From Patescibacteria group bacterium (GTDB lineage Bacteria > Patescibacteriota > WWE3 > UBA101185 > UBA10185): DNA of 64,000 nt. The notes beneath the pieces are model-generated. The model had not been told where the DNA came from. It saw only the letters and a program-made list of their open reading frames with translations, and did not search any database. The stretch's first letter is position 1. Every line of letters begins with the position of its first letter. This document shows positions 41,257 to 61,422 of this stretch, piece by piece. Position numbers and translations under genes: made by a program. The stretch spans positions 755-64,754 of the forward strand of contig JBMORU010000001.1 of assembly GCA_049322215.1 (NCBI GenBank). The letters run 5' to 3'.

Positions 41257-41412
41257 TTTACTTTGGTTTTTTTGTTAAATCGCCACCGCAGTTGGGACAA
41301 AATTTCTTCTTTTTGGGAACGTTGAACAGCCTTCTGCAATGAGGACAACGCTTAGCACCCTTACGTACAATGGGTACAGGTCTAATTGGAGCGCCGGGTA
41401 TTTCAAGTGGCA
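41257..41412 (-). CDS. Zinc-ribbon miniprotein (51 aa), not in the ORF track because it is under 60 aa
   Basis: Own translation: MPLEIPGAPIRPVPIVRKGAKRCPHCRRLFNVPKKKKFCPNCGGDLTKKPK with CPHC...CPNC. GAGAGG lies 5 nt upstream of the ATG. Start and stop are coupled to the upstream gene (TAAaaATG). GC-rich. Confidence 0.4.
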
Positions 41413-41414
41413 TT

Positions 41415-41891
41415 TTAACCTCTCAAGTTTTTGATCCAGGCCATCAGGGCTTGGGGAGCGCTTGTTAAAGGTAATCTGTACAGGAAAATTCCCGCAGGTT
41501 CCTCGTAGCGCTCAAAAACCATATTGTACAAAGGCATACCGTTTTTACCCCACCTAGCTACCCAGTCGGGACTGTTGAATTCGGTCTCAAGCCAAAGTCG
41601 ATGTGTAGGGTACCGTCGCGTTTCGGTTAGAAAAATGTGTACCTTATCCGCTTGGGTCATAATTTTGACTTTTGCAGGACGGCCAAAAACAGCATGAAAA
41701 GAACCTTGCTGCTTGTCAACCCAGGCAATTGTGGCAGAACGACCATCTATTACTAACAAATGGCGGTTCTTAGCTACATGAAGGATAGGATATCCCGAAG
41801 GGGATCTTTCATCTGCCAATACCGCACCGCGTGTCCCTGCAAGCAAAGGCAAGGCAACCGTTTCGGCTACAGTTTTTGCAAGTCTGCTCAT
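41415..41891 (-). CDS. Hypothetical protein (158 aa), GC-rich (about 55%) relative to the neighbourhood
   Basis: Long ORF with strongly different base composition from flanking genes. No domain recognised. Confidence 0.5.
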   Translation of the reverse strand: MSRLAKTVAETVALPLLAGTRGAVLADERSPSGYPILHVAKNRHLLVIDGRSATIAWVDKQQGSFHAVFGRPAKVKIMTQADKVHIFLTETRRYPTHRLWLETEFNSPDWVARWGKNGMPLYNMVFERYEEPAGIFLYRLPLTSAPQALMAWIKNLRG

Positions 41892-42211
41892 TTTTATCTC
41901 CTTATTTATTGATTTAGGGCTATATTTAAACCCATTCTTTAGTGATATTTATGACAAATTATACATGAAATTGCATATTAAAGCAACCTATAGTGTTAGA
42001 ACCCACCACTGTTTTTAATAATAAGTAGAAAACAAACACACAAATAAGAATTTTGTTGAAGAACTTAAAAAACTCTAAATGAATATAAGAAAATATAAAA
42101 CCTTGGTGAACCGCAATGTGGAATATTTTTATCTTAAGTTCATATTGGCAACAATTGTAGACAACCCTGATGCTATAGGGTATACTACAATCATATTCTG
42201 GAGGTAAAAAA

Positions 42212-42559
42212 ATGAAAGATGACAAAGGCTGGAACAAATATGGACCAAAAACCTTTAACGGGATAGAGGTACGTATGGCGCTTTTAAACGAAATTTGTGG
42301 GTTTGTTATTATAGAGGTATCCCAAAACAGAGACCCTAAAATAACTGATTTTGAAGGATCAATGAGAGAAGCAGTAACCGAGATGGAACTGGAAGCTTTA
42401 ATTGATGCTTTTAAAACCTTCGCAAAGCACTGGTTGTCATTTGAAGCGCCTAGACCAAAGATTGTTGGAAACTTCAAGAAACTTTTTGAACCTTTGGCAC
42501 TGCTTGATTTTGAGAACTTGCCTGCACAAATTAAAGCTTTTGACTTTTCAACACTGTAA
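42212..42559 (+). CDS. Hypothetical protein (115 aa)
   Basis: RBS GGAGGT 8 nt upstream of the ATG. Coding-like composition. Confidence 0.5.
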   Translation: MKDDKGWNKYGPKTFNGIEVRMALLNEICGFVIIEVSQNRDPKITDFEGSMREAVTEMELEALIDAFKTFAKHWLSFEAPRPKIVGNFKKLFEPLALLDFENLPAQIKAFDFSTL

Positions 42560-42766
42560 TATTTATACCTGTAAAGTTTTCTTTAAAAACCTAGGAGAAC
42601 TTTGCAGGTATTTTTTTTTAATTGGAAGGAAGTATAGAAAAACCTCAAACTTTGAGGGCAATTCATCACTATAAGTTAGGCTATACATTAATGCAATGTC
42701 ACATATCCTAGCAAAACTAGAAATCCCTTTAGTGCATAAATACTAAGCATATGAGATCATTGCACT

Positions 42767-43018
42767 GTGTATTACAAAGTAAAAATTAAAACTATGAAGT
42801 ATATAGTGCTTACCTACTGTGTTTTGACGAAAAATATAGCGGGAGCTATGAAAATGTATGAGAAACTTTTCAATAAATACCTATCTAAAGTAGACACACC
42901 TGAAGCATTTGATATATGGAAGGATATACAAGAAACAAACCTCGGAAAAACTTTTAATAATAGGTTAGGAAACCAGAATGCCAGTGAGAATTTTGTAGAA
43001 AAACTTAAAAAACTATAA
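42767..43018 (+). CDS. Hypothetical small protein (start uncertain)
   Basis: ORF only. Possibly starts at the internal Met (MKMYEKL). Confidence 0.3.
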   Translation: MYYKVKIKTMKYIVLTYCVLTKNIAGAMKMYEKLFNKYLSKVDTPEAFDIWKDIQETNLGKTFNNRLGNQNASENFVEKLKKL

Positions 43019-43020
43019 CT

Positions 43021-43320
43021 TTACAGTTTTATTGACTCCAAGTCCCCAGATTCCAAATGGAACAAAATATCACACAGTGGATATACAGAGGTTTTTAGCA
43101 TGTGGTGAATTGGCTCGGCTTCAAAAATGTTACCAATTTCATAGGCAACCATATCAGGCAACTCCCCCGCGTACCACTCCTTATAAACATTCGTAAGAAA
43201 CGTATCGGTCTTGGAAACGTTTTCAGCAGACAAGTTGGTAAGATCAAGATTGCTCTTCTTAATATAATTAAGGGCATCTTCAGAAAACTTTTCTATTTGT
43301 GCATCGGTAAATAAATTCAT
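43021..43320 (-). CDS. Hypothetical protein (99 aa)
   Basis: ORF with coding-like composition adjacent to the tRNA-Ala 3' end. Confidence 0.4.
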   Translation of the reverse strand: MNLFTDAQIEKFSEDALNYIKKSNLDLTNLSAENVSKTDTFLTNVYKEWYAGELPDMVAYEIGNIFEAEPIHHMLKTSVYPLCDILFHLESGDLESIKL

Positions 43321-43389
43321 AGTAATTCAATAATATACTACTAAATAAGTAAAAAGAAATGTTAAAAACTCTAAGGAAATGTAAGAAAA

Positions 43390-43465
43390 CATGAGGTCAT
43401 GGTGGACCGTACCGGGTTCGAACCGGTGACCTCTACTATGCCATAGTAGCGCTCTACCAACTGAG
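43390..43465 (-). tRNA. tRNA-Ala (anticodon GGC)
   Basis: Acceptor GGGCCGT/ACGGTCC with the diagnostic G3-U70 pair. D-arm GCTC-AGTTGGTA-GAGC. Anticodon stem CTACT/AGTAG with loop AUGGCAU. T-arm ACCGG-TTCGAAC-CCGGT. Discriminator A and CCA are encoded. Confidence 0.85.
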
Positions 43466-43538
43466 CTAACGGCCCTCACCTTAATTTAACTTTGCGCTAC
43501 GACTGCCTACGGCAGTCTAATGCGCTCTACCAACTGAG
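43466..43538 (-). pseudogene. tRNA-Ala 5'-half pseudo-copy: acceptor 5' strand plus complete D-arm (27 nt identical to the functional gene), followed by an unrelated 7-bp hairpin instead of anticodon and T arms
   Basis: GGGCCGTTAGCTCAGTTGGTAGAGCGC is repeated exactly at 43512-43538. Downstream there is no TpsiC loop and no 3' acceptor strand. It contains the hairpin GACTGCC-gta-GGCAGTC. Confidence 0.5.
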
Positions 43539-43561
43539 CTAACGGCCCACAAGTAAAAACA

Positions 43562-44722: not shown

Positions 44723-44737
44723 AAATGGATTTTAGCA

Positions 44738-45934: not shown

Positions 45935-46033
45935 AATAACACTGAGAGATGTGCAATGAATATTTTAACAGTTTATACAAGCATCCACAACTTAAACAAA
46001 CGTTATTACTGTAGGGTAAAGTTAAAGCGAAGA

Positions 46034-46573
46034 CTAGTTAAGGTCGCAGCGAACTTTTTCTTCAAAAGTAGCTAAAGCAGGTTTTCGATACTTAAGCAAA
46101 TAAATTCCGTAAGAAATTAAAGATAAAGAAACTATATATAAAACTATTTGGCTAGAGCCCGTGTCAGGTACAGGAGTTGTACTTTCAGATGTTTCTTCCG
46201 TAACAGTTGTAGTTTCTGTAGTATCAGGTAAAGATTGACCTGTATGCAGTGTAAAAGCAATAGTTTCGCCACCTGAAGATAAAAAGCTTACTGAGTGATC
46301 ACCTGTTTCTAATGTAGAGGCGTATGCCCATATACCAGAGCTGTCTGCTGAAGTAGTAGAAGACTCACCATTTATAGTAACTGTTATTGTAGATCCAGGG
46401 TCTGCTATTCCTGTGAATAATGGATTTATTCCGGTATACCACCAATCGGTGTAATTCGCTCCATTTGTATTTAAAGATCCAATAGTTAAAAGCTCAAAAT
46501 CGGCAGCAAAAACCGGAAAGGCAGTACTTAATAAAAACAATATAACAATCAGTGTAGCGCAAATTCTCTTCAT
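46034..46573 (-). CDS. Secreted S/T-rich surface protein with a C-terminal sortase sorting signal variant (VPDTG, hydrophobic helix, KYRK, then a 15-aa tail)
   Basis: N-terminal signal peptide ending at AFPVFA. The C-terminus reads TPVPDTGSSQIVLYIVSLSLISYGIYLLKYRK. Confidence 0.5.
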   Translation of the reverse strand: MKRICATLIVILFLLSTAFPVFAADFELLTIGSLNTNGANYTDWWYTGINPLFTGIADPGSTITVTINGESSTTSADSSGIWAYASTLETGDHSVSFLSSGGETIAFTLHTGQSLPDTTETTTVTEETSESTTPVPDTGSSQIVLYIVSLSLISYGIYLLKYRKPALATFEEKVRCDLN

Positions 46574-46619
46574 ACTTACATAAGTCTAGTAACTTAAAAT
46601 CACGGTGTCAATTAGTATT

Positions 46620-47882: not shown

Positions 47883-48061
47883 AACTAACCTCTCATAAAA
47901 AAATAAACATCTTCTATTGTGGAAACATTCTTGGATATCTAGCTAATGCTTGATAGTTGGCGCAAACGCCAAAAGTTTCTACTAAACTAATTTCACGCTG
48001 AAGACGGGAGATAGCCACTGCCCCGAGCTACCTCCCAACTTCAACGAGAAATCTACAGCAC

Positions 48062-48718
48062 TTAATTGGTAAGCAGACCTTTCACGACAAGGCGTTTATT
48101 ATACCCTTGCCCTGGAAGCCAAACCCCACCGCAAGTTATTAAAGTCACAGTAGGTGCTTCAGTAGTTTCAAAGATTTCTAATCTGTTAGGATCCTGGATG
48201 TCAACATAAAATGAATCGGTTATTTTATAAGTGTATTCTCTACCGTATTCATCAACTACCGATACTGTATCATCTACTTTTATATTTTTCAATTGCCAAA
48301 ATGCAGCAGGACTTCCTGTGTTTGTATCATAATGTGCAGCAATAATTAAATTACCATTTTGCCCTGGCATAGCACCATCTTCATACCAACCGGCATCTCC
48401 CCAATTAGCGGGCACACCTAAAGCACCATCTTCTTCTACATTTATATGTACAATATTTAAACTTAAGTCAAAGGTATTTAAATAAAGCTTTTTTGGCTCT
48501 GAATACAAACCCATTCTAAAAGAATCAAAAGGAGACTCTGGTTGAGAAGTAGCTGACTCTAAATTTTTATCTATATTTTCCGTAGGCGAAGCTCCCTCAG
48601 ATATTCTATTAGAAGGTAAAAGATTAATAATACTTAAGCGGTTAGCATACAAAAAGTAACCCAATAGGGGCAAAATTACTCCAATTATTAAAATTTGTAG
48701 AAGTTTTCTTTTAGACAT
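48062..48718 (-). CDS. Sortase family transpeptidase
   Basis: N-terminal TM helix. IIAAHYD has the His. VTLITCGG is the TLxTC Cys motif. KRLVV has the Arg. It lies immediately downstream of the LPDTG-protein gene. Confidence 0.7.
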   Translation of the reverse strand: MSKRKLLQILIIGVILPLLGYFLYANRLSIINLLPSNRISEGASPTENIDKNLESATSQPESPFDSFRMGLYSEPKKLYLNTFDLSLNIVHINVEEDGALGVPANWGDAGWYEDGAMPGQNGNLIIAAHYDTNTGSPAAFWQLKNIKVDDTVSVVDEYGREYTYKITDSFYVDIQDPNRLEIFETTEAPTVTLITCGGVWLPGQGYNKRLVVKGLLTN

Positions 48719-48860
48719 ATTGAAAGTATACCTTTTTAAAGAGAAGGACTAGCTTTCGCTAGTCCAGTCTCAAAAGGTTTGCTTCCTTAGAGGAAGAATA
48801 GATGGGCCGCGTAAGTTGAACGAACCCAACCCATCTATTCTGCCTCCAAGGGCTAGTTAT
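48719..48860 (-). promoter_or_regulatory. Structured intercistronic region between the LPDTG-substrate gene and the sortase gene, with three consecutive stem-loops
   Basis: The stem-loops are GAATAGATGGG-(23 nt)-CCCATCTATTC, CTTCC-tctaa-GGAAG and GACTAGC-ttt-CGCTAGTC. It may be an attenuator or terminator-readthrough element tuning sortase relative to substrate. Confidence 0.3.
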
Positions 48861-49526
48861 TTATTTACTTTTTCTTTTTAAAGCTGTTCCACCTGTAAGC
48901 ATGCTTACACCTAATAAGGTTAAAGCTACAGTAGAACTAGCACCAGTGTCAGGCAATTCAGAAATACCTAATACATCACCTTCACTGCCTTCAAAACATA
49001 CGGTAGCTGTGTCAGAAGCTTCTTCGTTGTCATCGTATTCAACTACAGCCTCATTAACTACACAAATGTATTTATCGTCTTCTACATAATCCTCATCGAT
49101 TTTTACCTTTATTTTGAACTCTTTTTCATCACCAGGCTCAAAATCATCCCAATCTTCTGTTAAATCACCAGATATTAATTTTAAACCATCAGGTAAGTAG
49201 TCATGCATGCGCATATTATCAAAAGATACATCGTCTACACCACCGTCATCGGTTTCATTTTTTACGGTTATTATAAATACGATTTCTTCATCTATATCTT
49301 CATATTTAACAATAAGCTTATCTTTATCGGTGTTATCGTCTTCAAAACGAACTTTCTTTTCTATATCAAAAGACTTATTGATAATGCAAGGTTCACCACC
49401 ACCATATGACTGATCTTCACAGTCAGCTGCATGTGCAGTGTTAGGCACCAAAAGTACTACGCTAAAAATAGCAAGTATAATGCCCAAAAGTATTAAATTT
49501 ATTTTAAATAATTTTGTAGTATTCAT
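48861..49526 (-). CDS. LPXTG-anchored acidic surface protein (LPDTG sorting signal) with a DUF11/CARDB-like domain. The start is placed at the internal Met (MNTTKLF.., signal peptide).
   Basis: The C-terminus reads ISELPDTGASSTVALTLLGVSMLTGGTALKRKSK, the canonical LPXTG + hydrophobic + basic tail. A signal peptide with AHA cleavage site is present. The protein is very D/E-rich. Confidence 0.7.
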   Translation of the reverse strand: MNTTKLFKINLILLGIILAIFSVVLLVPNTAHAADCEDQSYGGGEPCIINKSFDIEKKVRFEDDNTDKDKLIVKYEDIDEEIVFIITVKNETDDGGVDDVSFDNMRMHDYLPDGLKLISGDLTEDWDDFEPGDEKEFKIKVKIDEDYVEDDKYICVVNEAVVEYDDNEEASDTATVCFEGSEGDVLGISELPDTGASSTVALTLLGVSMLTGGTALKRKSK

Positions 49527-49593
49527 AGTTTTTTTATTTTTTAGGCAAGAAAATTTAACAGAATATCTGCTAGTAAATGGGTAACTTTGAAAA

Positions 49594-49622
49594 ATATTAA
49601 CCCAGTTTTGCAAGTTTGTCAA
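49594..49622 (-). promoter_or_regulatory. Sigma70-like promoter for the LPDTG-protein/sortase operon
   Basis: On the minus strand: TTGACA-17 nt-TAATAT, about 65 nt upstream of the MNTTK start. Confidence 0.45.
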
Positions 49623-49705
49623 GGCTATAGGGTTGACAAATTTATAAAGCATACATAAAACATACCATTATTTATGAAGAAAGCAAAGTAGGGGTTTTTG
49701 CTAAT

Positions 49706-49735
49706 TTGACGGCAATGACTACCCCATAGTATAAT
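49706..49735 (+). promoter_or_regulatory. Sigma70-like promoter for the secreted-protein gene at 49793
   Basis: TTGACG-18 nt-TATAAT. RBS AAGGAG lies 8 nt before the ATG. Confidence 0.45.
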
Positions 49736-49792
49736 TAGGGTGTTACAATATGTAACTGTGCGTTGAAAACTAAATAATAAGGAGAATGATAA

Positions 49793-51241
49793 ATGAAAAC
49801 GCAAAAGAAAGGTTTATTGGCTTTGTTAGCCACGATCGCGGCGCCTTTAATGCTGATTGGTGCTTTTTTGACCTTAGGCAGTGAAGCAAACGCGCAAGTT
49901 CAGGCCTCAGCAGCTCTGGTTATCCCCCTTTCTACTGACGCCCCGGTAGCAGATGCAAATCCTGTCACCGGAACCGGCGAACAGTGTTGGGACGATGCCC
50001 CACGGATTGTTGATGGAAAACTGTACGATATCTGCGTTGGCTGGAACTACGCCTCTGGTGGAGCATTGAGTACGCACACCATTTGGGCCCCACAATGGCA
50101 AACGGATGCTTTCACAAGAACAATGTGGGGAGGAAATGTTGAAATGGTTGTACAATACAACGACGGCTATACATGCAGCGGACAGTCAGCGAAAGTTGAA
50201 ACTGGGCTAACTCATGCAGTTGTAGCTGTAGGCACTGGCGGCGGTAATATTGGATTTGGACCTGGCGAAGGAGCAGTTTGCGAGCACGAGGTGACGGACT
50301 TTAACACGTACGTTTTTCTTCTCACAAACGTGATTTCTGGCACCGAATTCCAAGTTCTTTCTGACGGCTTCCCTGTGTATGAGGAAACGCTACATGGTGG
50401 TTTGGCCTTTACAGTTACTGCTTCAATTCCCACCTACGCGGAATGGTCTTTGATTCAAACAAACTTGACCCCTCCTGGAGGTGAAGCTGTTCAATCTAGC
50501 CAAGGGTATACATATAATCCCAATCCATCAGAACCTCCTGTGGTACCCGAACTGAATGTCTCTTTGATCACGCCGGTGTTACTCACACAACCTATCACTG
50601 ACACAAGCACGACAGTTGCAGACAACAACGACATTTGCTACAGCGCGCCCGCGGTAGGCTACCTAAGCAACGCATCTCTTCCTGAATGTGTACGGTTCGA
50701 AACTTCGGCACCTACCTCTACGATCGAACTGTTCTACACACCGGAAATGGTAGAGACCAACGGAGATCAAACACTGTGGACCTTTGACCCGGCCAATATG
50801 GATCTCATTGTTACTTACGCTGATGGCACCCAGATGATCTGCGATAGTATCTACATCGTGCCTGGCCCCATGAAAATCGAAGTTATCGGCCAAGGCAGTA
50901 TCGGTCAAGGTGGTGGTGTTTCTGATTCGTGCAACTACGTGCCCGCCTTCCCCATGAAGAAATTCGGCATCAACGTAGCAAACGTCTCGGAACCCACATC
51001 TGTTGTGATGGCCTATGGAGAAAGCAATCCAGAAATCCTGACAAGCCAAACCATCACTACCGATACAGAAATCGTCGTAGAAGTTCCAACCTACCAATGG
51101 ACGTACGTGAGCACCTGGACCTGCGACGCAAACACGGCGCTTATCGGTGGCTTATGTGCACCTTCGCAAGCAGAAGTATCCGGCTGGATGTACTTGCCCC
51201 CGCAACTTACATTCATGCCTGTCGTGTTCAACAACCAGTAA
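49793..51241 (+). CDS. Secreted hypothetical protein (482 aa), GC-rich (about 50%)
   Basis: Signal peptide MKTQKKGLLALLATIAAPLMLIGAFLTLGSEANA. No sorting signal. Composition is distinct from its neighbours. Confidence 0.5.
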   Translation: MKTQKKGLLALLATIAAPLMLIGAFLTLGSEANAQVQASAALVIPLSTDAPVADANPVTGTGEQCWDDAPRIVDGKLYDICVGWNYASGGALSTHTIWAPQWQTDAFTRTMWGGNVEMVVQYNDGYTCSGQSAKVETGLTHAVVAVGTGGGNIGFGPGEGAVCEHEVTDFNTYVFLLTNVISGTEFQVLSDGFPVYEETLHGGLAFTVTASIPTYAEWSLIQTNLTPPGGEAVQSSQGYTYNPNPSEPPVVPELNVSLITPVLLTQPITDTSTTVADNNDICYSAPAVGYLSNASLPECVRFETSAPTSTIELFYTPEMVETNGDQTLWTFDPANMDLIVTYADGTQMICDSIYIVPGPMKIEVIGQGSIGQGGGVSDSCNYVPAFPMKKFGINVANVSEPTSVVMAYGESNPEILTSQTITTDTEIVVEVPTYQWTYVSTWTCDANTALIGGLCAPSQAEVSGWMYLPPQLTFMPVVFNNQ

Positions 51242-51381
51242 ACCAACCTTAAACGCACACAGCTATGCCTCATAAAGTATAGCTAGATATCAAGGGCGAG
51301 CATTAGTGATTGTAAACTTAAAAATTTACTCTCATTAATGACTCGCCTTTCTTTTTTCCCTCAATTCTCTATAATTTTCAC

Positions 51382-52581
51382 ATGCAAGACAAAGAGTTAA
51401 AAGTACTATTAACAATACCTTTCTTTTACCCACATAGAGGTGGCAGTCAAAAATACGCAGAAGAAGTTTTAGCACCAATGGTAGAAAAACATAAAAATGT
51501 AAAAGTTGACGTACTTTGTTACAACACAGATCATGTTTCTGAAAAAGAAGAATACCGAGGTTTTACTGTTTATAGAGTTCCTTGTTGGAACATAATTCCC
51601 GCACGTTTCGCTTTAGCTAAACCATTGGCATTAAATAAAAAATTAAAAGAACTTTCGCATGAAAAATACGACTATGTAATTACACATATAAGATTTTTTG
51701 ATCCTACATGGTGGGCATGGCGTTATGCTAAGAAAATAGGCGCTAAAAGTATATTTACCGGCCATGTACCCTCGCATCCTGCACATCAAAGTAAAATTGT
51801 TGAATTTGTGGCGAAAACGGTAGATTTAACTATTGCAACCTTATCTTTGAAAAAGTATGACTATTTGGTCTTTGTAAATAAGGCTTCTCAAAAGTTTTTT
51901 AAAGAAAAGCTAGGAGTAAAAAAAGAGTCCTTTCTTGTATATATAGGTGTTAATACTAAAGAATTTAAACATGCGAACATAGATAGTGAACGAAAAATTC
52001 CTACAACAAATAAAATACTGAATAAAGATGACATTCTGGTGCTATTTTTAGGTAGAGTTATTTGGACCAAAGGCCCGCAGTTTGTTATTGAGTCTGCTAA
52101 AGAACTAGTTAAATCAGGTTATAGCAATGTTTACTTTGTAATAGCTGGCCCAGGAGAATTAGAAAACGAACTTAAACAAAAAATAAAAGAATACGGATTA
52201 GAAGAAAAAGTGTTTATGACAGGGTCTTTAGAGTACGACAAAGTAAAACATTTATACTCTATAAGTGACATTTTTGTTAATCCCTCACATCATAACGAAG
52301 GGCTCCCTAACACATTGCTTGAAGCAGGAAGTTCAGAACTGTTAGTTATAGCTTCAGATAATGGTGGTACAACAGAGTTAGTAATAAATAATGAAACCGG
52401 AATAGTTATTCCACAAAAAGATCAGCAAGCACTAACCAATGCCTTAACATGGGCACTAAATAACCCACAAGAAGCAAAAAAACTCGCACAAAATATAAGA
52501 CAAAAAACTGTTAACGAGTTTGACTGGGATGCTCTATCAGAGCAATTTTATAATTTACTTGTAAATGACTTTAATAATTAA
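51382..52581 (+). CDS. Glycosyltransferase family 1 (GT4-type)
   Basis: EGLPNTLLEAGSSELLVIASDNGGTTELV is the E-x7-E motif. N-terminal GT-B domain. Confidence 0.75.
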   Translation: MQDKELKVLLTIPFFYPHRGGSQKYAEEVLAPMVEKHKNVKVDVLCYNTDHVSEKEEYRGFTVYRVPCWNIIPARFALAKPLALNKKLKELSHEKYDYVITHIRFFDPTWWAWRYAKKIGAKSIFTGHVPSHPAHQSKIVEFVAKTVDLTIATLSLKKYDYLVFVNKASQKFFKEKLGVKKESFLVYIGVNTKEFKHANIDSERKIPTTNKILNKDDILVLFLGRVIWTKGPQFVIESAKELVKSGYSNVYFVIAGPGELENELKQKIKEYGLEEKVFMTGSLEYDKVKHLYSISDIFVNPSHHNEGLPNTLLEAGSSELLVIASDNGGTTELVINNETGIVIPQKDQQALTNALTWALNNPQEAKKLAQNIRQKTVNEFDWDALSEQFYNLLVNDFNN

Positions 52582-53462: not shown

Positions 53463-53576
53463 TCTAGTTTAATGCTCCTCCAAGCATAAATTAATAGTTT
53501 ATTACTATGAGTTATATATAACCAAAAACTATGAGTTATGTCAACACTTATTTTGAGAAAGTTTTTTCTATTATAT

Positions 53577-54170: not shown

Positions 54171-54273
54171 ACGGACTTTATTATAACAAGAAAAAAACCC
54201 TTACATTAATTTCTGTAGTAGAAACTAACGTAAGGGTTTATGCCCAAAACAACAAACTGGCTAGACTTTTAAG

Positions 54274-54714
54274 TTAGGGGCGCTCGGGATCCGGTATTTT
54301 AAAGAGCAAAACAGCAAAAGGGCCGATTTCTTCATGGGAAACTATAAAACGATACCCTCGTGGGAACTCGCCTTGGGTTTCATAAGAGAAAACAACCTCA
54401 TCACCCTCCACACCATGAAAAATCAACGTAATCACAGCATCCTCTACACGTAACGTATACTCGTTATCGTTCATTGGGGCTTCTGCGGTAAACTCCCTCT
54501 TGTCAGTGGCCTGGATCGACTCAATTCTACTGTTTAACTCAGCCGGCGAAGCTTGCTGCAAAGTAAATTCGGTGCCTTCATGCGTGGCCTCAACATAAAC
54601 TTCAGGGGTTGTTTCGGTGGGTAAACACGCTGCCAGCAGACCCAACAGCACAATGCTTAGCAAAAAAACTATTCGTCTCATTTCTTTTTCCTTTTTATTT
54701 GGATTTGTGACCAA
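54274..54714 (-). CDS. Small lipoprotein (lipobox LLAAC), GC-rich
   Basis: MRRIVFLLSIVLLGLLAACLP is a signal peptide plus lipobox. GC is about 47% against an AT-rich flank. Confidence 0.5.
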   Translation of the reverse strand: MVTNPNKKEKEMRRIVFLLSIVLLGLLAACLPTETTPEVYVEATHEGTEFTLQQASPAELNSRIESIQATDKREFTAEAPMNDNEYTLRVEDAVITLIFHGVEGDEVVFSYETQGEFPRGYRFIVSHEEIGPFAVLLFKIPDPERP

Positions 54715-54783
54715 TATAATCTACTTACAGGATCTTATTATAACAGTACAAAAGCCTCTTATCAATACTATAGGTTTGCAAGT

Positions 54784-55701
54784 GTGTTGCCAAGCATTAA
54801 GCAATTATTTGAGATATACTTAAATAGTATTATGAAAAGAAAAGAACTAAATCAGTTACTTCCACAAATAATAGGCTTAGTAGTAGTTATTGCCACAGTA
54901 TTAATATCGATAGGTGGAAAAGAAATTCCAATTGGAACTAATGTAGCAAAAAAAGTAGGTAGATATAGTGTTAAAACCTATAAATACGGTGTATTTTTAA
55001 ATCAAACCCCATCTAGAGTTTTTTATAATTTTTCTCCATACGATGCGTATTATATAAATGATGACAACGACCAAATAAGATTACTATTTTGGGAGAATCT
55101 TATTGTCAGTAGCGAATTAAGTCAACCCATTGGATCGTTCAAATCACGACTCATTGCATTACTAAGCATATTTAATCAAATTCAACCTAAAGCTACATTT
55201 TTAACACAAGATGGGCCTTTAGTATTGGAAACTGCTGTAAACAACCATATGTTAAATGTTAAGCTCGCACAAAGCCCATACGAAGGCTGGGGACATCACA
55301 CTGTATTAACTATGTCATTTGATGACAACGATTACATTTTTACCCAGCAAGGTAACCTTTTAACCGAGAAAGATTCTGAAGAAGTAAAGGAGTTTGAAAA
55401 GTTTTTTAACTATAGTCTAAATCCACTAAACACAGAAATAGAAGAATTTAGTGAAAACCTAGAAGAAACAGAAATGGTAAAAAAAACACCAACTCCTGAA
55501 GATTTGAAAGTTAAAGAAGCTATATACATTGTGAATCCAAAAACAGAAGGTGTTTTAAGGATTAAACAGGAATTCAATCAAGACGCCGTTATTGAGGTTA
55601 ATTTAGAAAAAGAACTGATAGAATTTGTACAACCCAGCTGGAAAAAAGCAGAGGCAACTATAGAACTATTTGATTCGTTAGAGGAGGCACTTAATAAATG
55701 A
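54784..55701 (+). CDS. Hypothetical membrane-anchored protein. Its stop overlaps the next gene's start (ATGA), so the two are translationally coupled.
   Basis: TM helix near the N-terminus (LLPQIIGLVVVIATVLISIGG). Coding-like composition. Confidence 0.45.
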   Translation: MLPSIKQLFEIYLNSIMKRKELNQLLPQIIGLVVVIATVLISIGGKEIPIGTNVAKKVGRYSVKTYKYGVFLNQTPSRVFYNFSPYDAYYINDDNDQIRLLFWENLIVSSELSQPIGSFKSRLIALLSIFNQIQPKATFLTQDGPLVLETAVNNHMLNVKLAQSPYEGWGHHTVLTMSFDDNDYIFTQQGNLLTEKDSEEVKEFEKFFNYSLNPLNTEIEEFSENLEETEMVKKTPTPEDLKVKEAIYIVNPKTEGVLRIKQEFNQDAVIEVNLEKELIEFVQPSWKKAEATIELFDSLEEALNK

Positions 55702-57665
55702 GCTACACTCAATACTTAATACCAATGGTTGCCGCTTCAATGTTTTATATTAGTCCAATTCTAATAGGGCGGGCTTTTATAATTTTAAAAAAGCTAGCGT
55801 ACAAAAGTAGAACATTAATTGAACTCGAAAGCGATGATAACGTTGCCTTTGCCATTACCGAACTAGTAATGAGTTTTGTGTACGGCGCCATAATAACGTT
55901 TGGCTTGGCATTTTTAACTTTTTCAGAAAAATTTAGCAGTCTTTTGAACAAAACATTTGCTCAGGGCTTCAGAAATGCAATGATCACGGCACTTACAGTT
56001 TCGACAGTAATTGTTTTAACAAACACAATTTTTAATTTACTTAAAAAACCTCAAATAAAACTAGCTAAACTCGCAGTGCCAATTTATATAATTGCACTGT
56101 CCTTAGGAGCATACGCAATTTGGCGATGGGATGCAGGCTTAAACACAACCTTAAATTGGGATTTATACGAACACCAAACCATAGTTAACGAAATGCAAAA
56201 GGGCAACTTTGATATAACACCGTTAAACCTTAGCGACACCTTTCAGTTTAATAGTTACTCAACCTTATTTCACGTTTTAATATTTCAGGCACAGTTGCTT
56301 GTTAAAAGCGATATATTAGGATTTTGGTGGTTTGTTGAATACTTTCACTTGCTAGGAACTATTGCCGTCTCATACGTTGTAGGATATGCCCTAACACGAA
56401 ACAAATGGATAGGTATAACAAGTGCGCTATTTGGAGCATTTATTTTTGAGTCATTCATTGCTTATACTTCTTTATTTTTAATTCCGCAAAACTTGGCAGC
56501 AACTGTTATAGCCGCATTTTTAGCTAGAACAGTGATTAGAAACCAAAGAGGAGATACAACGCACGAAATAAGTACAGGGATAGTAATAATATACTTACTT
56601 TTAAATCATTTAATAATTGGGGCAGCCGGCGTAGCTGTGGTGCTTTTTGCAAACTCTTACCTAAATATTTTCAAAAAAACAAAAAGAATACCTTTGCAAC
56701 AAATTTTGGTGTTGTTAGCCGCTTTAGTTGTGGTACTAAGTCCTTTAGTAACAAGCAAAATAGAAACATACGATGATCTAAATAGAGGAGAAGCAGAACA
56801 TTTTAATTTATCTATAGAAAGAAAACTTGGCCTAGTAACCGAATTCTACGGATTCACTTTTTTCATTTTACTCCCTCTAGGATTAATGTATGTAATAAAT
56901 CGTAAAAGAACTGATTTGTATTTACTTTTGCTAATTACACTTGGAACTTTAGGTGTTGTAGGAGCTACACTGCCTTATACGCTAAAGTTTTACACTACAG
57001 GCAGGTATCTTGTGCATGCGGTAATGGCAATCGGGTTCTGGGACATTGTGAAGCGTTTCAACGTTTTCTTTAAAAGCTTAAGCTTTTTGCTACTAACAGC
57101 TGCGCTATTAATTATCTACACCTTAAATATTAGCGGCTTCAAACAAACACCTGTATATAAAACAACATCTACACACGTAACAGATTACGAAATAGAAGCT
57201 GCAAAATTTATAAAAGATAACTATTATGGACAAAACGTGTGGATAGTAAGTGAGCCAGCAACAATGTACATTTTAGAAGGGCTTTCTGGAGTAAATTCCC
57301 CAGGCGGAGTATTTACTGAAATATCAAATAGAGAAGTACTATCTCAAATATATTTCACACGTGATTCAGTTGAAATGGCAAAGCAAATTTACAATATTGA
57401 TGATTTGTTGCTAAAAGAAAAACCCGACAAAATTTTATTTACAGTAAGCGGAAGGTTTTCACGCTGGCAAGGTTTTAAGGACAAATATAAGTTTGGGATT
57501 TTTTGGAACGTTTGGACACCAGAGGATTTAACATTGGTAGATTACGATTTTATTAACTTTATGGAAGAATACGCTAAGTTTAAGCTAGTTTTTAAAAATA
57601 ATGGTCTTGCTATATTTGAGGTTCCTAATCCTGAAAGAGTTGAGGGGTTTTCGAATGCACGCTGA
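55698..57665 (+). CDS. Polytopic membrane protein (655 aa) with a C-terminal soluble domain. Possibly a GT-C-type glycosyltransferase, given the neighbouring GT1/GT2 genes (inference).
   Basis: About 12 predicted TM helices and then roughly a 220-aa hydrophilic C-domain. No specific motif recognised. Confidence 0.45.
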   Translation: MSYTQYLIPMVAASMFYISPILIGRAFIILKKLAYKSRTLIELESDDNVAFAITELVMSFVYGAIITFGLAFLTFSEKFSSLLNKTFAQGFRNAMITALTVSTVIVLTNTIFNLLKKPQIKLAKLAVPIYIIALSLGAYAIWRWDAGLNTTLNWDLYEHQTIVNEMQKGNFDITPLNLSDTFQFNSYSTLFHVLIFQAQLLVKSDILGFWWFVEYFHLLGTIAVSYVVGYALTRNKWIGITSALFGAFIFESFIAYTSLFLIPQNLAATVIAAFLARTVIRNQRGDTTHEISTGIVIIYLLLNHLIIGAAGVAVVLFANSYLNIFKKTKRIPLQQILVLLAALVVVLSPLVTSKIETYDDLNRGEAEHFNLSIERKLGLVTEFYGFTFFILLPLGLMYVINRKRTDLYLLLLITLGTLGVVGATLPYTLKFYTTGRYLVHAVMAIGFWDIVKRFNVFFKSLSFLLLTAALLIIYTLNISGFKQTPVYKTTSTHVTDYEIEAAKFIKDNYYGQNVWIVSEPATMYILEGLSGVNSPGGVFTEISNREVLSQIYFTRDSVEMAKQIYNIDDLLLKEKPDKILFTVSGRFSRWQGFKDKYKFGIFWNVWTPEDLTLVDYDFINFMEEYAKFKLVFKNNGLAIFEVPNPERVEGFSNAR

Positions 57666-57827
57666 ATGACACTCTTTTCGCGCTTGAATGTTCTATAACT
57701 TAAGCCTGTGACTTTCTCAACAGTAAAAAAAATGGCGTAGAAAATACAATGCAGGTTTTATCCTTTATTGTACTTACTACGCCATGTGTCGCGTTAGTTA
57801 GTAGAACTAGCTAACTTTTGGTTTTGA

Positions 57828-58898
57828 TTAATCGTCCGTGCTAACAGTTGCATCAATGTGAGTAGGATCCAACGTAATGCCGCGCTCTTCGCAATAGGTT
57901 ACAGCGAATTCAGGATCCAAGTTGGCCGGAATACCTTTGTCTTCAATGCGTTCGCAATATTCCACCCGAAGCTGTTCAGCCCACAACATCTCAGCTTGTT
58001 CATAGAAGGCTTGTGTGCTGGGGCGACATACAGGAATTTTGGTTCCTTGATCGTTGATATCACCCCACGGTCCAATCGTGAACTTGGCAGCGGTCTGTCC
58101 AGGGCTGTTGTGAAAACCCAGTTTGATATCGATGCCGGGCAAAAGTTCAACACTACCACAGTTGGTTTGCATTGGCTCACCCGGATACTGAACGTTAATC
58201 CAGCTACCAGCGACTGCCCATGCAGACAAACCATCATTTGAAGGTAAGCCCATACCTTGCGGATCACCCTCAAAGTATAGTTGCTGCAAATAGGTAGAAT
58301 GTGTCACCTCTTGCTCCAAATCGCCATTGAAGTAGTCAAAACGACCATAGTGCAGTGTAACCGTGTAAGAGGCGCCACCACTCACTTCAAACTGGTAACA
58401 GTCCGTGAACAATACACCGGGTGCCGCATCAGGAGCATTACCCTCAACTACATGCGGGGTACCCCACTGACAGACAACATTTTCGGTGCTTTCCCAAATT
58501 TCGGGTTCTTCAAACGTGGCATCCATACCGGCAACCAAACCAGGTACAGCACGACCATATTGAAGAGCAGCATCGAATTCTTCTTGCCTAAAGGTACCTT
58601 CCACAGGGACTTCAACTTCGACCTCTACCGGAACTTCAACGATCCGCGTGGCTTCAACTTCAACCTCAATGCGTTCTACAATGGTTGTAGCAGTCGCAGC
58701 AGGCATAGCTTCGGCCTCGGCGGTTTCAGCTTCCGGACGGTTGTTCAAAGCGTTCTGAACAGATTCCCCATCAATCGTCGCAATGGCCGTAGGCTCACCG
58801 AGATCCAGGGGGACTTCAGTGTTTTCCTCGCCACAAGCAACAACAAACAGAGCGAAAACCAATACCAATACAAGTAAGATCCAATTCTTTTTAGACAT
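57828..58898 (-). CDS. Lipoprotein (lipobox FVVAC), GC-rich, acidic
   Basis: MSKKNWILLVLVLVFALFVVACGEEN. A repetitive VEVEVPVEVEVEV segment. GC is about 50%. Confidence 0.55.
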   Translation of the reverse strand: MSKKNWILLVLVLVFALFVVACGEENTEVPLDLGEPTAIATIDGESVQNALNNRPEAETAEAEAMPAATATTIVERIEVEVEATRIVEVPVEVEVEVPVEGTFRQEEFDAALQYGRAVPGLVAGMDATFEEPEIWESTENVVCQWGTPHVVEGNAPDAAPGVLFTDCYQFEVSGGASYTVTLHYGRFDYFNGDLEQEVTHSTYLQQLYFEGDPQGMGLPSNDGLSAWAVAGSWINVQYPGEPMQTNCGSVELLPGIDIKLGFHNSPGQTAAKFTIGPWGDINDQGTKIPVCRPSTQAFYEQAEMLWAEQLRVEYCERIEDKGIPANLDPEFAVTYCEERGITLDPTHIDATVSTDD

Positions 58899-59202
58899 GT
58901 CTATTCTCCTTATTAAGATTTTGTGGATCTGGCTTACAAAAAAGCAAAAATTTGACTATTTTGTGCCTTGAAAAGGTACTAAATTTAATACCCTTACAAG
59001 GCTCAAAATATTTAGTTCATAATGAATTCTGCATATATTATACCCTATAGTTAGAGTTGCGACAATAACATTTAAGTTAAATACAGAGTGTAAGGTGAGT
59101 GTATGGGGATTTCAATTTTGATTTGTGATCAATTTTGAATTTACACACTCACTAAACTAATTACAAGTTGCGTTTCGTTGTAATTAGGGCTCCCACTAAA
59201 AC

Positions 59203-59739
59203 CTATTCGTAAATGCTTACAAACTTATAGGTTTCTTCGCAATCGCCGCCGGGGTCATAGGTGAAAGTCGAGCCATACTGCGCATCGGCTGGAATTTCGA
59301 AGGTAACAAGACCACAGGCTTGGTTGGGCACTGTAGCTTGATCTCCGGGTTTCCATCCATGAACAGCAGCGGTATCTTCTTTGGCTGCGACGTCTGGGGC
59401 TGGGTAAGCGGTTTCGGTCGGTTCTTCGTTTGCGCCCAGGTCAAGGTCAACAGAAGATTCGTCGTTGCCAATGGCGGTAACGAATTCTTGCTGCATAACC
59501 CAGTTGTATGCCCTTTGGCCATAAAGCAAACTGACCGCACCGCAGATACACAGAACTAGGATCAAGGGAATGATCCACAACAAGCGACGTGAGTTTCCAT
59601 TCGAACCGGAAGCAGCAACTTGATTGAAATCATGGCCGCAATTGGGGCAAGTAGCTTCGGTGTCCTGTACCATGTTGTGGCAGTCAGGGCACTCTTTCTC
59701 GTTAAGGTTGGGAAGATTTACATTTGGTACTTGATTCAT
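59203..59739 (-). CDS. Zinc-ribbon / single-TM / extracytoplasmic-domain membrane protein
   Basis: N-terminal CPDCHN...CPNCGHDF zinc ribbon, then the TM helix LLWIIPLILVLCICGAVSLLY, then a 110-aa C-domain. It lies 40 nt downstream of the tubulin-like gene on the same strand. Confidence 0.55.
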   Translation of the reverse strand: MNQVPNVNLPNLNEKECPDCHNMVQDTEATCPNCGHDFNQVAASGSNGNSRRLLWIIPLILVLCICGAVSLLYGQRAYNWVMQQEFVTAIGNDESSVDLDLGANEEPTETAYPAPDVAAKEDTAAVHGWKPGDQATVPNQACGLVTFEIPADAQYGSTFTYDPGGDCEETYKFVSIYE

Positions 59740-59778
59740 CGTTATTCTCCTTATCTAATAGTTTTTTTGACATTGTTC

Positions 59779-61422
59779 CTACTTCAAAAGAGTCGTTCGG
59801 CGGGCACGAGCCTTACGCAACGCTTGCTTTTTTTCGAGTTGACGCATTTCATCATAGGTTAAGGCGTTGAAACCAGGCTCTTCAATGGGATATCCCGCAG
59901 GTCCTGTAATTACATTGCCTTCCTCATCCCTCAGCAAACTCATATGCTCGTAAATTAAAGTGGACGGACCAAAGGGACGCTCATCACTATGGTGAGGAAC
60001 ACCGTCAGGAACAGTGGTCGGGACAAAGGCACGGCGTGCATTTATGAAAGCCACACCGTTTTGGACGGCATGCAATCTCTCCATTCGCACAGCATCAAGC
60101 AGCTCAGGGCCTTCTTCAGGAAGAAGATAGGGGCCACTTGCACGACTCTGCAAACGCAAATTCTGTACAATACCATCAATTTCGCGCAAAATTCCAGCAA
60201 CCAAGCCCGGAATGTGCGTCCAATTGGTAACACCTCCCTCATCAATTGGTTTATCCAAACCCTGTTCGTTGTAAATACGACGTAGTTGGGTTTCGGCATA
60301 ACCACTTGCAAAGAAGGCTTTCATGCGTGCTAGATCGCCAACTGTGCGCGCCTGAGAAGCAGAAACTTTCAACGAAGCCACGAAGCCAGAGGACTTACGG
60401 AATCCGTTTTTCTGTAGTTCCCAAACATCATCATATAGAGCCCAATCAAAGGAATCCCCATTGTTGATGATGGCAGAAGCAATACGCTTGATGTCCAGAA
60501 CAGTAAGCTCATCAGAAATGAGCATTACGTTGGGGGCCATCCGGTCTGCAACCCTATTGTTAAGATGCGCCATAATGTCCGGCAGCATCATCAACAGAGC
60601 CATAATACCGTAGGTACCCAAACGACTGGAAACAAAAATCGAATCTTCTTCGGTTTCCCACATGTGGCGAGAGCGATCCCAGGCATCTTGCGCTTTAGGA
60701 TTTAACACACCGTCGTGACGACGAATCATGTTATCGTAAGCACGCCATCCCAAAAACACTTTTGGAATGCCGGCAAATCCATTAAGGCCACGCTCTTTTG
60801 CGATACTTTCTGCAATGGCCAAGGCAAGTTTGTAAATACCTGCTCCTGTGCCACCCGCAGTGCCGATAAAGGCTACGGGAAGAATGTTCTTCACAATGCC
60901 CGAGCCTACCATAGCATCGGCAAACTCAAACATATAGTCTTCCAGGGCATCCTGCGTGAGATACATGATGTACTTACCTACAAGAGGCAGCGCACCAGCA
61001 CCCCAACGAACCGATCTGTTGCCAAACTCAGGATGTTGCACCAACTCTGCAAATTCAGCTCGCTCTTGTTCGTTGTCAAACGCTTCAAGAGGCACGCCGT
61101 GTTGAGCAACAGCTTCTTGCAAGGTCAGGTCCATATGCTCACCAAGGCGAACGATACCCCAATTTTGAGCTTGGGGGTTAGTTTTTTGGTCTTCAAAATC
61201 CCCAGCCTTGAAGTGGGTGTCAACTTTGATGACTTTGATAAGCGTTCGAAGATCAGGGTATTTTTGGAACAGACGCACAAATTCGTGGCCTAAACCGCCA
61301 ACACCGCCCAATAAGAATACAACGATAAGATCAACGTCTTTGATCTCCTCATGGGCGAAGAAATCCTTCAGAATAGGATCTTTACCCAGACGAGAGCGAA
61401 CATATTCCATGATTTTAGACAT
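59779..61422 (-). CDS. Divergent tubulin/FtsZ-superfamily GTPase (TubZ/FtsZ-like, not canonical FtsZ), 547 aa
   Basis: T1-like Gly loop LIVVFLLGGVGGLG. IGTAGGTGAGI matches the tubulin/FtsZ signature [SAG]GGTG[SA]G. An acidic ISDELTVLD segment sits at the expected T7 spacing. The long C-terminal extension ends in a basic tail (RKARARRTTLLK). Confidence 0.5.
   Translation of the reverse strand: MSKIMEYVRSRLGKDPILKDFFAHEEIKDVDLIVVFLLGGVGGLGHEFVRLFQKYPDLRTLIKVIKVDTHFKAGDFEDQKTNPQAQNWGIVRLGEHMDLTLQEAVAQHGVPLEAFDNEQERAEFAELVQHPEFGNRSVRWGAGALPLVGKYIMYLTQDALEDYMFEFADAMVGSGIVKNILPVAFIGTAGGTGAGIYKLALAIAESIAKERGLNGFAGIPKVFLGWRAYDNMIRRHDGVLNPKAQDAWDRSRHMWETEEDSIFVSSRLGTYGIMALLMMLPDIMAHLNNRVADRMAPNVMLISDELTVLDIKRIASAIINNGDSFDWALYDDVWELQKNGFRKSSGFVASLKVSASQARTVGDLARMKAFFASGYAETQLRRIYNEQGLDKPIDEGGVTNWTHIPGLVAGILREIDGIVQNLRLQSRASGPYLLPEEGPELLDAVRMERLHAVQNGVAFINARRAFVPTTVPDGVPHHSDERPFGPSTLIYEHMSLLRDEEGNVITGPAGYPIEEPGFNALTYDEMRQLEKKQALRKARARRTTLLK

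Follow-up and report, generated by a model that had tools for sequence, protein, structure and literature searches.

A stretch of 64,000 nucleotides (nt) from a Patescibacteria group bacterium of the WWE3 lineage (the window; positions 755 to 64,754 of contig JBMORU010000001.1, assembly GCA_049322215.1) raises the question of how a handful of genes of about 50% guanine-plus-cytosine (GC) content came to lie in an AT-rich chromosome, and why they still differ from it. An earlier note on this DNA read them as multiple independent acquisitions from a higher-GC donor and allowed for assembly chimerism. We favour, with moderate confidence, another reading, in which the GC-rich genes form a resident, lineage-specific accessory class that occupies fixed slots in the chromosome and whose compositional offset is kept by a continuing GC-ward force. 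Observed directly are the codon dialect that these genes share, the slots themselves, the positional homology of their content among relatives, and an offset that has lasted through deep divergence.

The window as a whole is 37.1% GC. When GC was computed by codon position for 50 of its open reading frames (ORFs), 37 backbone genes had a third-position GC (GC3) of 0.241 ± 0.020 (range 0.211–0.293), and six flagged ORFs, at 0.428–0.497, lay far above them (z = 9.4–12.9) and were also elevated at the first (GC1, 0.53–0.61) and second (GC2, 0.37–0.47) positions. These six are the core gene of island A (41415–41891, minus strand; GC 0.474, GC3 0.428) and the genes of islands B (49793–51241, plus strand; 0.498, 0.493), C (54274–54681, minus strand; 0.468, 0.456), D (57828–58898, minus strand; 0.490, 0.440), E (59203–59739, minus strand; 0.497, 0.497), and F (59779–61422, minus strand; 0.479, 0.447). 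In a leave-one-out test of synonymous-codon log-likelihood, 6/6 island genes scored positive (+0.10 to +0.27 bits per codon) and 39/39 non-island genes, namely the 37 backbone genes and two giant ORFs, scored negative (−0.19 to −0.48), so that islands and all other genes separate completely. The steps up and down in a 150-nt sliding GC profile match the ORF ends, and the spacers within and around the islands have a GC of 0.28–0.36, for example 0.31 in the 304-nt spacer at 58899–59202. GC, GC3, sliding profile, and codon likelihood thus confirm the contrast described in the earlier note between GC-rich genes with G/C-ending codons and an AT-rich backbone. The flagged set itself needs some revision: six ORFs of about 50% GC stand, while a zinc-ribbon miniprotein gene at 41258–41413 is only intermediate (GC3 0.365), and the lipoprotein gene of island C, GC-rich as claimed, most likely starts at the ATG at 54681 and not at 54714.

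One dialect is common to the six island genes, with A-ending codons depleted and NNC or NNT preferred over NNA. Among isoleucine codons, ATA makes up 5% in islands vs. 45% in the backbone and ATC 41% vs. 6%, and the leucine and arginine codons TTA (12% vs. 45%) and AGA (12% vs. 46%) follow the same direction. At fourfold degenerate sites, coding-strand A falls from 0.46 in the backbone to 0.25 in the plus-strand gene B, and from 0.31 to 0.13–0.24 in the minus-strand island genes, with T little changed in either case; the same depletion of third-position A is seen in the GC-rich genes of four related genomes (L004, L006, L088, and L091; see below). Because coding-strand A is depleted in the plus-strand and minus-strand genes alike, an effect of the replication strand is ruled out. 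Among backbone genes, the plus DNA strand is A-rich at fourfold sites (A 0.46 and T 0.33 in plus-strand genes; coding-strand T 0.48 and A 0.31 in minus-strand genes), and cumulative GC skew declines from about 12.5 kb to the window end, as expected if most of the window lies in a single replichore.

Amino-acid composition alone was also rejected as the cause, as both GC3 and fourfold sites are shifted in the island genes. Two giant ORFs at 89–3535 and 3608–10618 illustrate the difference: at 42% GC they retain a native GC3 of 0.28–0.31, so their elevated GC is an effect of amino-acid composition and a phenomenon distinct from the islands. Gly, Thr, Ser, and Asp are abundant in their products (1148 and 2336 aa), both of which terminate in ARFGP(N/E)TG(S/P)P, an ending that, as read from the protein termini, may be a common C-terminal signal for sorting or processing; a sortase is encoded at 48062–48718. 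Within the GC-rich genes, plus-strand antisense ORFs of 127–198 aa (57858–58877 and 60715–61293) are the expected by-products of low stop-codon density and are not genes.

The island genes also differ from the backbone in translation initiation. All of the eight island ORFs (8/8) carry a Shine-Dalgarno (SD) sequence, with an anti-SD duplex energy of −5.6 to −10.2 kcal/mol, and the motif ATAAGGAGA is common to B, D, E, and the 158-aa product of the island A core gene (A158). The backbone median is −0.2 kcal/mol, a value that could understate backbone SD content since starts were not curated. The difference is significant in the window (Mann-Whitney p = 2e-4 to 4e-4) and remains so when the best of all possible starts is taken for each backbone gene (p = 4e-4). 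Pooled over the window and the relatives L088, L091, and L093, strong SD sequences precede 13/16 genes of high GC3 vs. 16/89 others (Fisher p = 1.6e-6). Most backbone genes have no SD, and many have TATAAT 6–10 nt before the start (e.g., 51382, 17000, 29902, and 54170), a pattern that suggests widespread leaderless mRNAs in this lineage.

Such an association might point to selection on expression, in which the GC-rich, SD-led genes would be a translational or mRNA-stability class, such as abundant or conditional envelope proteins. The tight link between strong SD and high GC3 in four genomes agrees with this, as do the 5′ ends of D, C, and F, which are AT-richer than the remainder of each gene, and the preference for NNC and NNT over NNA with avoidance of ATA, AGA, and TTA; the island codon preferences resemble the optimal-codon sets of other bacteria. 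However, the genes for ribosomal proteins L10 and L7/L12 rely on the backbone codons GTA, GCA, CTA, and TTA (GC3 0.21), so the dialect is not that of the high-expression class of this genome, and a codon bias of highly expressed genes was rejected on these grounds. The shift also extends to GC1, GC2, and amino-acid composition, beyond the reach of synonymous selection, and other exported or accessory genes (46034–46573, 48861–49652, and the giant ORFs), the LPXTG protein gene included, are native in composition, for which reason the notion that secreted proteins are simply GC-rich was likewise dismissed. Selection on expression is therefore improbable in our view. One of these native genes, at 46034–46573 (GC3 0.22), encodes a 179-aa secreted ORFan between the LysM/M23 and Rho genes and is missing from the equivalent position in L006 and L088; absence there and native composition together make it an accessory exported gene outside the GC-rich dialect. 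Upstream of L10-L7/L12, at 11510–11659, lies an ordinary ribosomal protein L10 leader (RF00557, 54 bits).

The compositional contrast itself, and nothing more, speaks for a chimera in which the metagenome-assembled genome (MAG) picked up wrongly joined reads from a GC-richer organism. The Logan assembly of SRR32167788, made with a second assembler, agrees with the window at 100% identity along the 21,449 bp retrieved from one of its contigs, 69.6 kb in length (window 39793–61241). A 1,736-bp contig (L002) from the independent run ERR15087771, a different sample, is 99.08% identical to window 49705–51440 and includes both AT-rich flanks, hence both junctions, of island B. Compositional breakpoints fall at ORF ends, each gene has an SD and a promoter-like site, and six other assemblies from separate projects have equal architecture. 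Chimerism, which the earlier note had allowed for, was rejected on this evidence and retains next to no probability.

Support for residence comes from relatives. A 655-aa multi-pass membrane protein encoded in the backbone at 55698–57665 (plus strand; GC3 0.293) served as a lineage marker to fetch the syntenic loci L006, L007, L088, L091 (WWE3 RIFCSPHIGHO2_01_FULL_40_23), and L093. In one source this protein is named an RgtA/B/C/D-like glycosyltransferase; its homologues, where named, belong to “candidate division WWE3”, and the best non-self match is 50% identical. Pairwise marker identities among lineages are 37–50%, and those of the syntenic relatives to the window 38–45%; a further locus, L004, lacks the marker and was compared through its PIN/TRAM protein (61% identical). 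Gene order at these loci is conserved, running from Obg, LysM/M23, Rho, sortase, and a CLIPPER/LPXTG protein through slot S1 to GT4 and GT2, then through slot S2 to a small membrane protein and the marker (with or without a PMT-like gene), and finally through slot S3 to PIN/TRAM, RadA, and ClpC. This synteny was established with L006, L088, L091, and L093, and in part with L007. In L091 a release-factor gene and small ORFans replace Obg-LysM/M23-Rho, and the L093 locus shows no PIN/TRAM. In the window, S1 lies between the LPXTG-type gene and GT4, S2 between GT2 and a gene for a 305-aa protein, and S3 between the marker gene and the backbone PIN/TRAM (YacL-like) gene at 62273–63253 (minus strand; GC3 0.260), which is followed by RadA. 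Islands B, C, and D-E-F are exactly S1, S2, and S3.

In every relative the slot genes are GC-rich against their own surroundings. Slot and backbone GC3 are 0.39–0.49 and 0.26–0.30 in L006, 0.61–0.69 and 0.36–0.46 in L088, 0.56–0.78 and 0.31–0.44 in L091, and 0.72–0.77 and 0.34–0.46 in L093; in L007, where total GC and not GC3 was compared, they are 0.54–0.57 and 0.40–0.43. In L004 slot genes have a GC3 of 0.53–0.66 between flanks of 0.28–0.31: this 4.6-kb contig carries PIN/TRAM (0.28), a spacer, an F-like gene, a zinc-ribbon/transmembrane protein gene, and a lipoprotein gene (0.58, 0.53, and 0.66), followed by an AT-rich membrane protein gene (0.31), a layout that matches the window downstream of PIN/TRAM. 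S3 is occupied by GC-rich genes in 6/6 relatives. L006 and L088 have no gene in S1, where L091 carries a GC-rich secreted ORFan of 416 aa and L093 an AbiEii pair. S2 has content solely in the window, L006, and L088, the latter two with orthologous GC-rich secreted ORFans of 537 and 555 aa. Slot proteins are 24–44% identical or unrelated, vs. 52–82% for the flanking PIN/TRAM. By direct reading of the proteins, B, C, D, E, and the slot proteins of the relatives have signal peptides, lipoboxes, or transmembrane anchors, while F and A158 look cytoplasmic. The earlier note was right to see mostly exported, lipo-, or membrane proteins of unknown function that share a foreign-looking codon usage. Backbone composition varies widely within the clade (GC3 0.24–0.49), as seen from L005 (Logan SRR22808039, 1–4158), which has the marker closest to that of the window (50% identity) and a backbone GC3 of 0.46–0.49. 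Further loci were sought with little return: a contig scan with the PIN/TRAM alignment met peptide patterns conserved across Firmicutes and gave only L008 as relevant, with a weak signal, and a metagenome scan with the D alignment re-found just the L091 organism.

The age of the slot genes can be gauged from the D lipoprotein, which has positional homologues in L007 (L007_294; 34% identity over 210 aa, E 3e-28), L091 (L091_317; 34%, E 3e-16), and L093 (L093_376; 26%, E 2e-9). Identities among these three are 31–35%, the marker proteins of the four D lineages are 37–45% identical to each other, and D is GC-rich relative to its own backbone in each of the four. By these figures D is about as old as the divergence of the lineages and evolves only somewhat faster than the marker; the ratio of D to marker identity is that expected from vertical descent of a faster-evolving protein. 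The sisters L006 and L088 are informative on a shorter scale. Their markers are 68%, their PIN/TRAM proteins 82%, and their backbone proteins 60–82% identical, and three slot orthologues 44% (over the full length), 29%, and 29%. The two genomes are about 0.15 apart in backbone GC3 and, in the same direction, 0.20–0.25 apart in slot GC3, with the offset kept. Synonymous sites have reached saturation many times at such distances, and the offset cannot therefore come from an import that has yet to ameliorate; the slot genes either have a higher equilibrium GC or are continually renewed. Gene content also turns over: F and E are present in the window and L004 and missing from L007, the closest relative of L004 (79% PIN/TRAM identity), and D is present in the window, L007, L091, and L093 and not detectable in L004. 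We conclude that the offset is largely a long-lived feature of the lineage and not a mark of recent import.

These observations bear on the proposal of the earlier note, taken here to mean several recent, independent, and still un-ameliorated acquisitions from a donor of about 50% GC. It would account for a composition that departs from the backbone at every codon position and is alike in all islands, for the position of island A beside a tRNA-Ala gene with att-like repeats and a partial tRNA copy, and for the empty S1 of L006 and L088, relative to which B is a gain or a loss. It does not sit well with positional homologues of D in four lineages whose markers are down to 37–45% identical, with an F-E-lipoprotein array at the same locus in L004, or with an equal offset in every relative. 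Moreover, four insertions trimmed exactly to ORF ends within 20 kb would be improbable, no donor homologues were found, and B–F have no mobility genes. With no donor, old positional homologues, and a parallel GC3 shift in L006 and L088, the claim of multiple acquisitions is not supported, and we consider the proposal very improbable as an explanation of the whole set; acquisition is plausible for island A only, with its tRNA-Ala and att-like scars, and not for B–F.

A search for donors and vehicles was made in several collections. In a word-indexed search of 5.8 billion sequences, the 547-aa F finds itself alone and the 482-aa B only a strain variant of 99% identity; neither has a donor homologue in a native GC-rich context among these 5.8e9 sequences or, for F, among 1.84e9 protein clusters. 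The F homologue with readable flanks has AT-rich Patescibacteria genes on both sides, at the same locus. The lack of a donor rests on F, B, and pattern scans, as A, C, D, and E were not searched in large protein collections. Against Pfam, PHROGs, PADLOC, and NCBIfam, the island proteins gave only generic zinc ribbons and a sub-threshold Tubulin_2 match, and pattern scans of IMG/VR and tblastn against INPHARED phages and PLSDB plasmids returned nothing. A phage, plasmid, or defence-system origin thus finds no support in these resources. B–F have no integrase, transposase, flanking direct repeats, or tRNA target. Integron cassettes were rejected, as there is no repeat family common to the island flanks, no attC-like repeat, and no integrase. 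So were targets of diversity-generating retroelements: there are no direct repeats of at least 25 nt involving island genes in 40–64 kb and no template/variable repeat pair, and no reverse transcriptase was seen among the ORFs of 40–62 kb, where the Pfam scan covered island proteins only.

A more refined form of import would have the slots refilled repeatedly from an unsampled GC-rich pool, such as Katanobacteria phages or plasmids or a GC-rich sister lineage, giving young copies of old families. Its attractions are the foreign-looking features (a shared codon dialect, and SD leaders in an SD-poor genome), the patchy distribution of F-E and D among close relatives, the mere 24% identity of F between the window and L004 next to 61% for PIN/TRAM, the existence of relatives with a higher-GC backbone (L005), and a conserved 21-nt hairpin at the slot border that could be a recombination site. 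Transfer from one member of the Patescibacteria to another is also the commonest route of horizontal gene transfer (HGT) reported (PMC12455944). On the other hand, no member of the pool appeared in a native GC-rich context (1.84e9 clusters, IMG/VR, INPHARED, PLSDB), and B–F have no flanking integrase, transposase, or repeats. Slot GC3 of 0.72–0.78 in L091 and L093 far exceeds every clade backbone seen, D/marker identity ratios fit vertical descent, and the slot orthologues of L006 and L088 follow their own backbones. We regard recurrent import as an unlikely explanation.

The hairpin, TGCTTCTGGACAGGAGAAGCA (62165–62185, minus strand), lies just downstream of PIN/TRAM at the S3 border and occurs once in the window. 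L006 and L088 carry it at 100% identity and L004 at 95%, although the neighbouring protein is only 55–60% identical. A conserved bidirectional terminator precedes it and the motif AAACAAGC follows it (flanks at 62200–62260). It matches no Rfam family, and could function as an operator, a small RNA, or a site of recombination bordering the variable slot.

Returning to a resident accessory class of these WWE3/Katanobacteria-like Patescibacteria, the slots would act as replacement-type flexible genomic islands, with very divergent or unrelated, mostly exported or membrane-anchored content at the same site. The offset would be maintained by a GC-ward force tied to slot evolution and not by a lag in amelioration, most likely in the form of frequent homologous exchange among related strains or species via conserved flanks, with GC-biased conversion, selection, or both. 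Several points weigh against this reading. The comparison sample is small, at seven genomes with one region each. The GC bias of recombination in bacteria is said to amount to only a few GC3 points, and the slot offset of 10–40 points is far beyond conversion effects of that order. Spacers between slot genes are AT-rich (0.27–0.39), where conversion tracts would be expected to include spacers. Finally, island B diverges no more than its flanks between two strains, and so gives no hint of enhanced exchange on that scale: L002 and the window differ at 13 positions in the 1449 bp of gene B (7 synonymous and 6 non-synonymous), a density of single-nucleotide polymorphisms equal to that of the flanks (3/287 bp).

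A broader formulation, which we advance tentatively and regard as doubtful in its full extent, is that two stable dialects coexist in one chromosome, with a fast-evolving, lineage-restricted envelope and cytoskeletal class that is 10–40 GC3 points higher, SD-led, and resident in its slots since before the deep radiation of the clade. The second dialect is GC-rich at all three codon positions, depleted in A-ending codons, and led by a strong AAGGAG SD, and the backbone dialect is AT-rich and mostly SD-less or apparently leaderless. If true, the broader formulation would mean a gene-class-specific equilibrium base composition in a bacterium, reached via an unusually strong local GC-ward force (conversion linked to recombination, or selection), and a clear counter-example to the amelioration rule used for dating horizontal transfers.

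Slot S3 holds a module of its own. F is a 547-aa protein of a new four-member family, with three remote homologues (27–28% identity) found by exhaustive HMMER search of 1.84 billion cluster representatives. The four-member alignment has invariant GG, GAGA(N)P, and GG-T-G-x-G motifs (G141-A142-G143-A144, G187, G190, G191, T192, G193, and G195), which we take to be the canonical FtsZ/tubulin nucleotide-binding loops; the window F reads AGGTGAG where the other three read GGGTGxG. Pfam Tubulin_2 matches 3/4 members (best E 1.3e-7) and PF00091 one (E 0.0018), while the window F itself reaches only E 0.07 and 12.8 bits against Tubulin_2, below the cutoff of 27. A sequence-profile search of the PDB with the family gave no match. 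In an AlphaFold2 (AF2) model from the four-sequence alignment, residues ~30–220 have a pLDDT of 73–89 except at ~71–90, values fall to 43–73 up to residue ~290, and residues 422–522 are below 50. With this model, the top 48 PDB hits in Foldseek are all FtsZ or CetZ (probability 0.97–1.0, best E 4e-5), although TM-scores are only 0.31–0.43, and the top hit in BFVD, a viral library, is a phage tubulin. Judged by its nucleotide-binding signature and predicted fold, F is a divergent putative GTPase of the FtsZ/tubulin superfamily.

E, encoded 39 nt downstream of F and probably in an operon with it, is a 178-aa protein with an N-terminal cytoplasmic zinc ribbon (Pfam Zn_Ribbon_1/DZR), one transmembrane helix, and an extracytoplasmic C-terminal domain. 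In the window, L003, and L004, which are all of the loci with readable downstream DNA (3/3), F is followed by such a small protein with a cytoplasmic zinc ribbon and one transmembrane helix. The L004 counterpart of E has 138 aa (27% identity, E 4e-5), and on a further contig (P0003) a small ORF of unreadable sequence lies downstream of the F homologue. A lipoprotein gene comes third in the window and L004. In the window this is D, a 356-aa lipoprotein with the lipobox VVAC, an acidic VEVEV linker, and a conserved C-terminal domain, which has the SD ATAAGGAGAAT and its own promoter-like site (59065–59037); a single-sequence AF2 model of D was unusable (pLDDT 38). FtsZl1 systems are associated with membrane proteins (PMC2875224), and by analogy F-E is probably a membrane-tethered filament system linked to the adjacent lipoprotein, in which F would be anchored via E, with the E ectodomain facing D.

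Islands B and C each hold one gene, and reading of the N-termini suggests that B is a Sec-secreted protein and that C, like D, is a lipoprotein. B is a 482-aa ORFan with a predicted Sec signal peptide, encoded between the LPXTG/CLIPPER-type protein gene and GT4, with the SD ATAAGGAGAAT and a promoter-like site at 49706–49735. C, between GT2/DUF218 and the 305-aa gene, encodes a 135-aa lipoprotein (lipobox LLAAC), with a promoter-like site at 54765–54737 and a strong 20-bp hairpin terminator at 54239–54195. Local promoters and terminators as claimed earlier are thus seen upstream of B, C, and D and after C, but over the whole region promoter-like matches are no more numerous than expected from shuffling.

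Island A (41.0–41.9 kb) is a separate case. It consists of an 86-aa ORFan (40987–41247, minus strand; GC 0.418, GC3 0.345, SD-led), with which the block begins, the minus-strand gene of the zinc-ribbon miniprotein (51 aa, CxxC…CxxC; Pfam DZR E = 5e-7 and Zn_Ribbon_1), and A158, a predicted cytoplasmic ORFan with the SD ATAAGGAGA. Neither the 86-aa ORFan nor A158 matches Pfam, PHROGs, PADLOC, or NCBIfam, and A158 has no relative in IMG/VR. The block at 40987–43320 is made up of small ORFans of intermediate GC3 (0.30–0.43) and lies beside tRNA-Ala(GGC) (43400–43475, minus strand). The last 10 nt of the tRNA and 36 nt downstream form a 46-nt direct repeat (42068–42113 and 43364–43409) whose copies are 1,296 bp apart and bracket a 1.25-kb ORFan segment (2 matches vs. 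0 expected by chance). In addition, the 5′ half of the tRNA has a 30-nt, 97% identical copy 73 nt upstream (43522–43551), and the 3′ end of an 83-aa ORF is duplicated over 53 nt (42026–42078 and 42966–43018). No integrase or excisionase remains at island A. The repeat pair looks like an att-type scar, and tRNA-Ala(GGC) is a probable integration target; because the repeat lies mostly outside the tRNA, local duplication is an alternative to integration, and the locus appears to bear the traces of one or several events of either kind. Island A is probably a decayed element integrated at tRNA-Ala, and classical acquisition is plausible there.

The wider meaning lies in how composition is used. Atypical GC is routinely taken as recent HGT and also serves to purge “contaminant” genes from MAGs. 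Here the atypical genes are real, old, and lineage-specific, so HGT callers that rely on composition would label them wrongly, and tools for cleaning MAGs would discard the very genes most likely behind the biology of the cell surface in these ultra-small episymbionts. Should recombination-linked GC bias or selection be what keeps the offset, orthologous slots across genomes that differ in backbone GC would offer a comparison, and a tractable natural system, for measuring both forces. The previously unseen FtsZ/tubulin-like family, paired with a zinc-ribbon membrane protein, may represent a membrane-tethered cytoskeletal module of the Candidate Phyla Radiation (Patescibacteria).

Among known systems, F resembles FtsZl1 (PMC2875224) in several ways: it is an FtsZ-like GTPase that has diverged strongly, its C-terminal region is long and unlike FtsZ, genes for membrane or exported proteins lie beside its own, and it probably does not serve as the division FtsZ. 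Unlike FtsZl1 operons, which typically include vWA, OmpA-like, kinase, or GTPase genes, this locus has none of these; the partners of F are a zinc-ribbon single-pass membrane protein and a lipoprotein, the Tubulin_2 match is sub-threshold, and only four members are known. Island A, and no other island, shares with tRNA-targeted integrative elements a direct repeat with the tRNA-Ala 3′ end, a partial tRNA copy, and small ORFans of intermediate GC3 bracketed by or adjacent to repeats, but lacks an integrase or excisionase and has a repeat mainly beyond the tRNA.

In the Lawrence and Ochman model, islands are acquired with atypical GC and then ameliorate. The genes described here resemble such classical islands in their atypical composition and codon usage and in carrying accessory genes of unknown function, with island A adjoining a tRNA and repeats. 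B–F differ in that they have no mobility genes, repeats, or donor; in recent HGT islands the same site would be empty in relatives, whereas S3 is filled in all six. Deep positional conservation and an undecayed offset contradict the expectation of amelioration. Patescibacteria have been described as carrying many islands, mostly from within-phylum transfer, with ancient transfers assumed to be invisible through amelioration (PMC12455944), and the genes described here would break with that assumption. GC-biased gene conversion in bacteria (Lassalle et al. 2015) is likewise a lasting GC-ward force tied to particular loci, felt at every codon position and strengthened where recombination is frequent; its effects are reported to be a few GC3 points, whereas the offsets seen here are 10–40 points with sharp ORF-level boundaries.

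Of the concepts already described, the replacement flexible genomic island (Lopez-Perez, Martin-Cuadrado & Rodriguez-Valera 2014, PMC4033161) comes nearest; exchange by homologous recombination at conserved flanks has been proposed for such islands. On location and content the likeness is good: the slots lie at constant positions between core borders, hold divergent yet functionally similar genes whose products are predicted to be exposed at the envelope, and have no integrases or hallmarks of illegitimate recombination. In contrast, the published islands vary within species (>98% average nucleotide identity) and are usually multi-gene clusters for glycosylation or the S-layer, whereas the present slots span lineages at ~40% marker identity and hold one to three ORFan genes each. 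What is new here is the depth at which the slots are conserved and their constant GC-rich, SD-led dialect, poor in third-position A.

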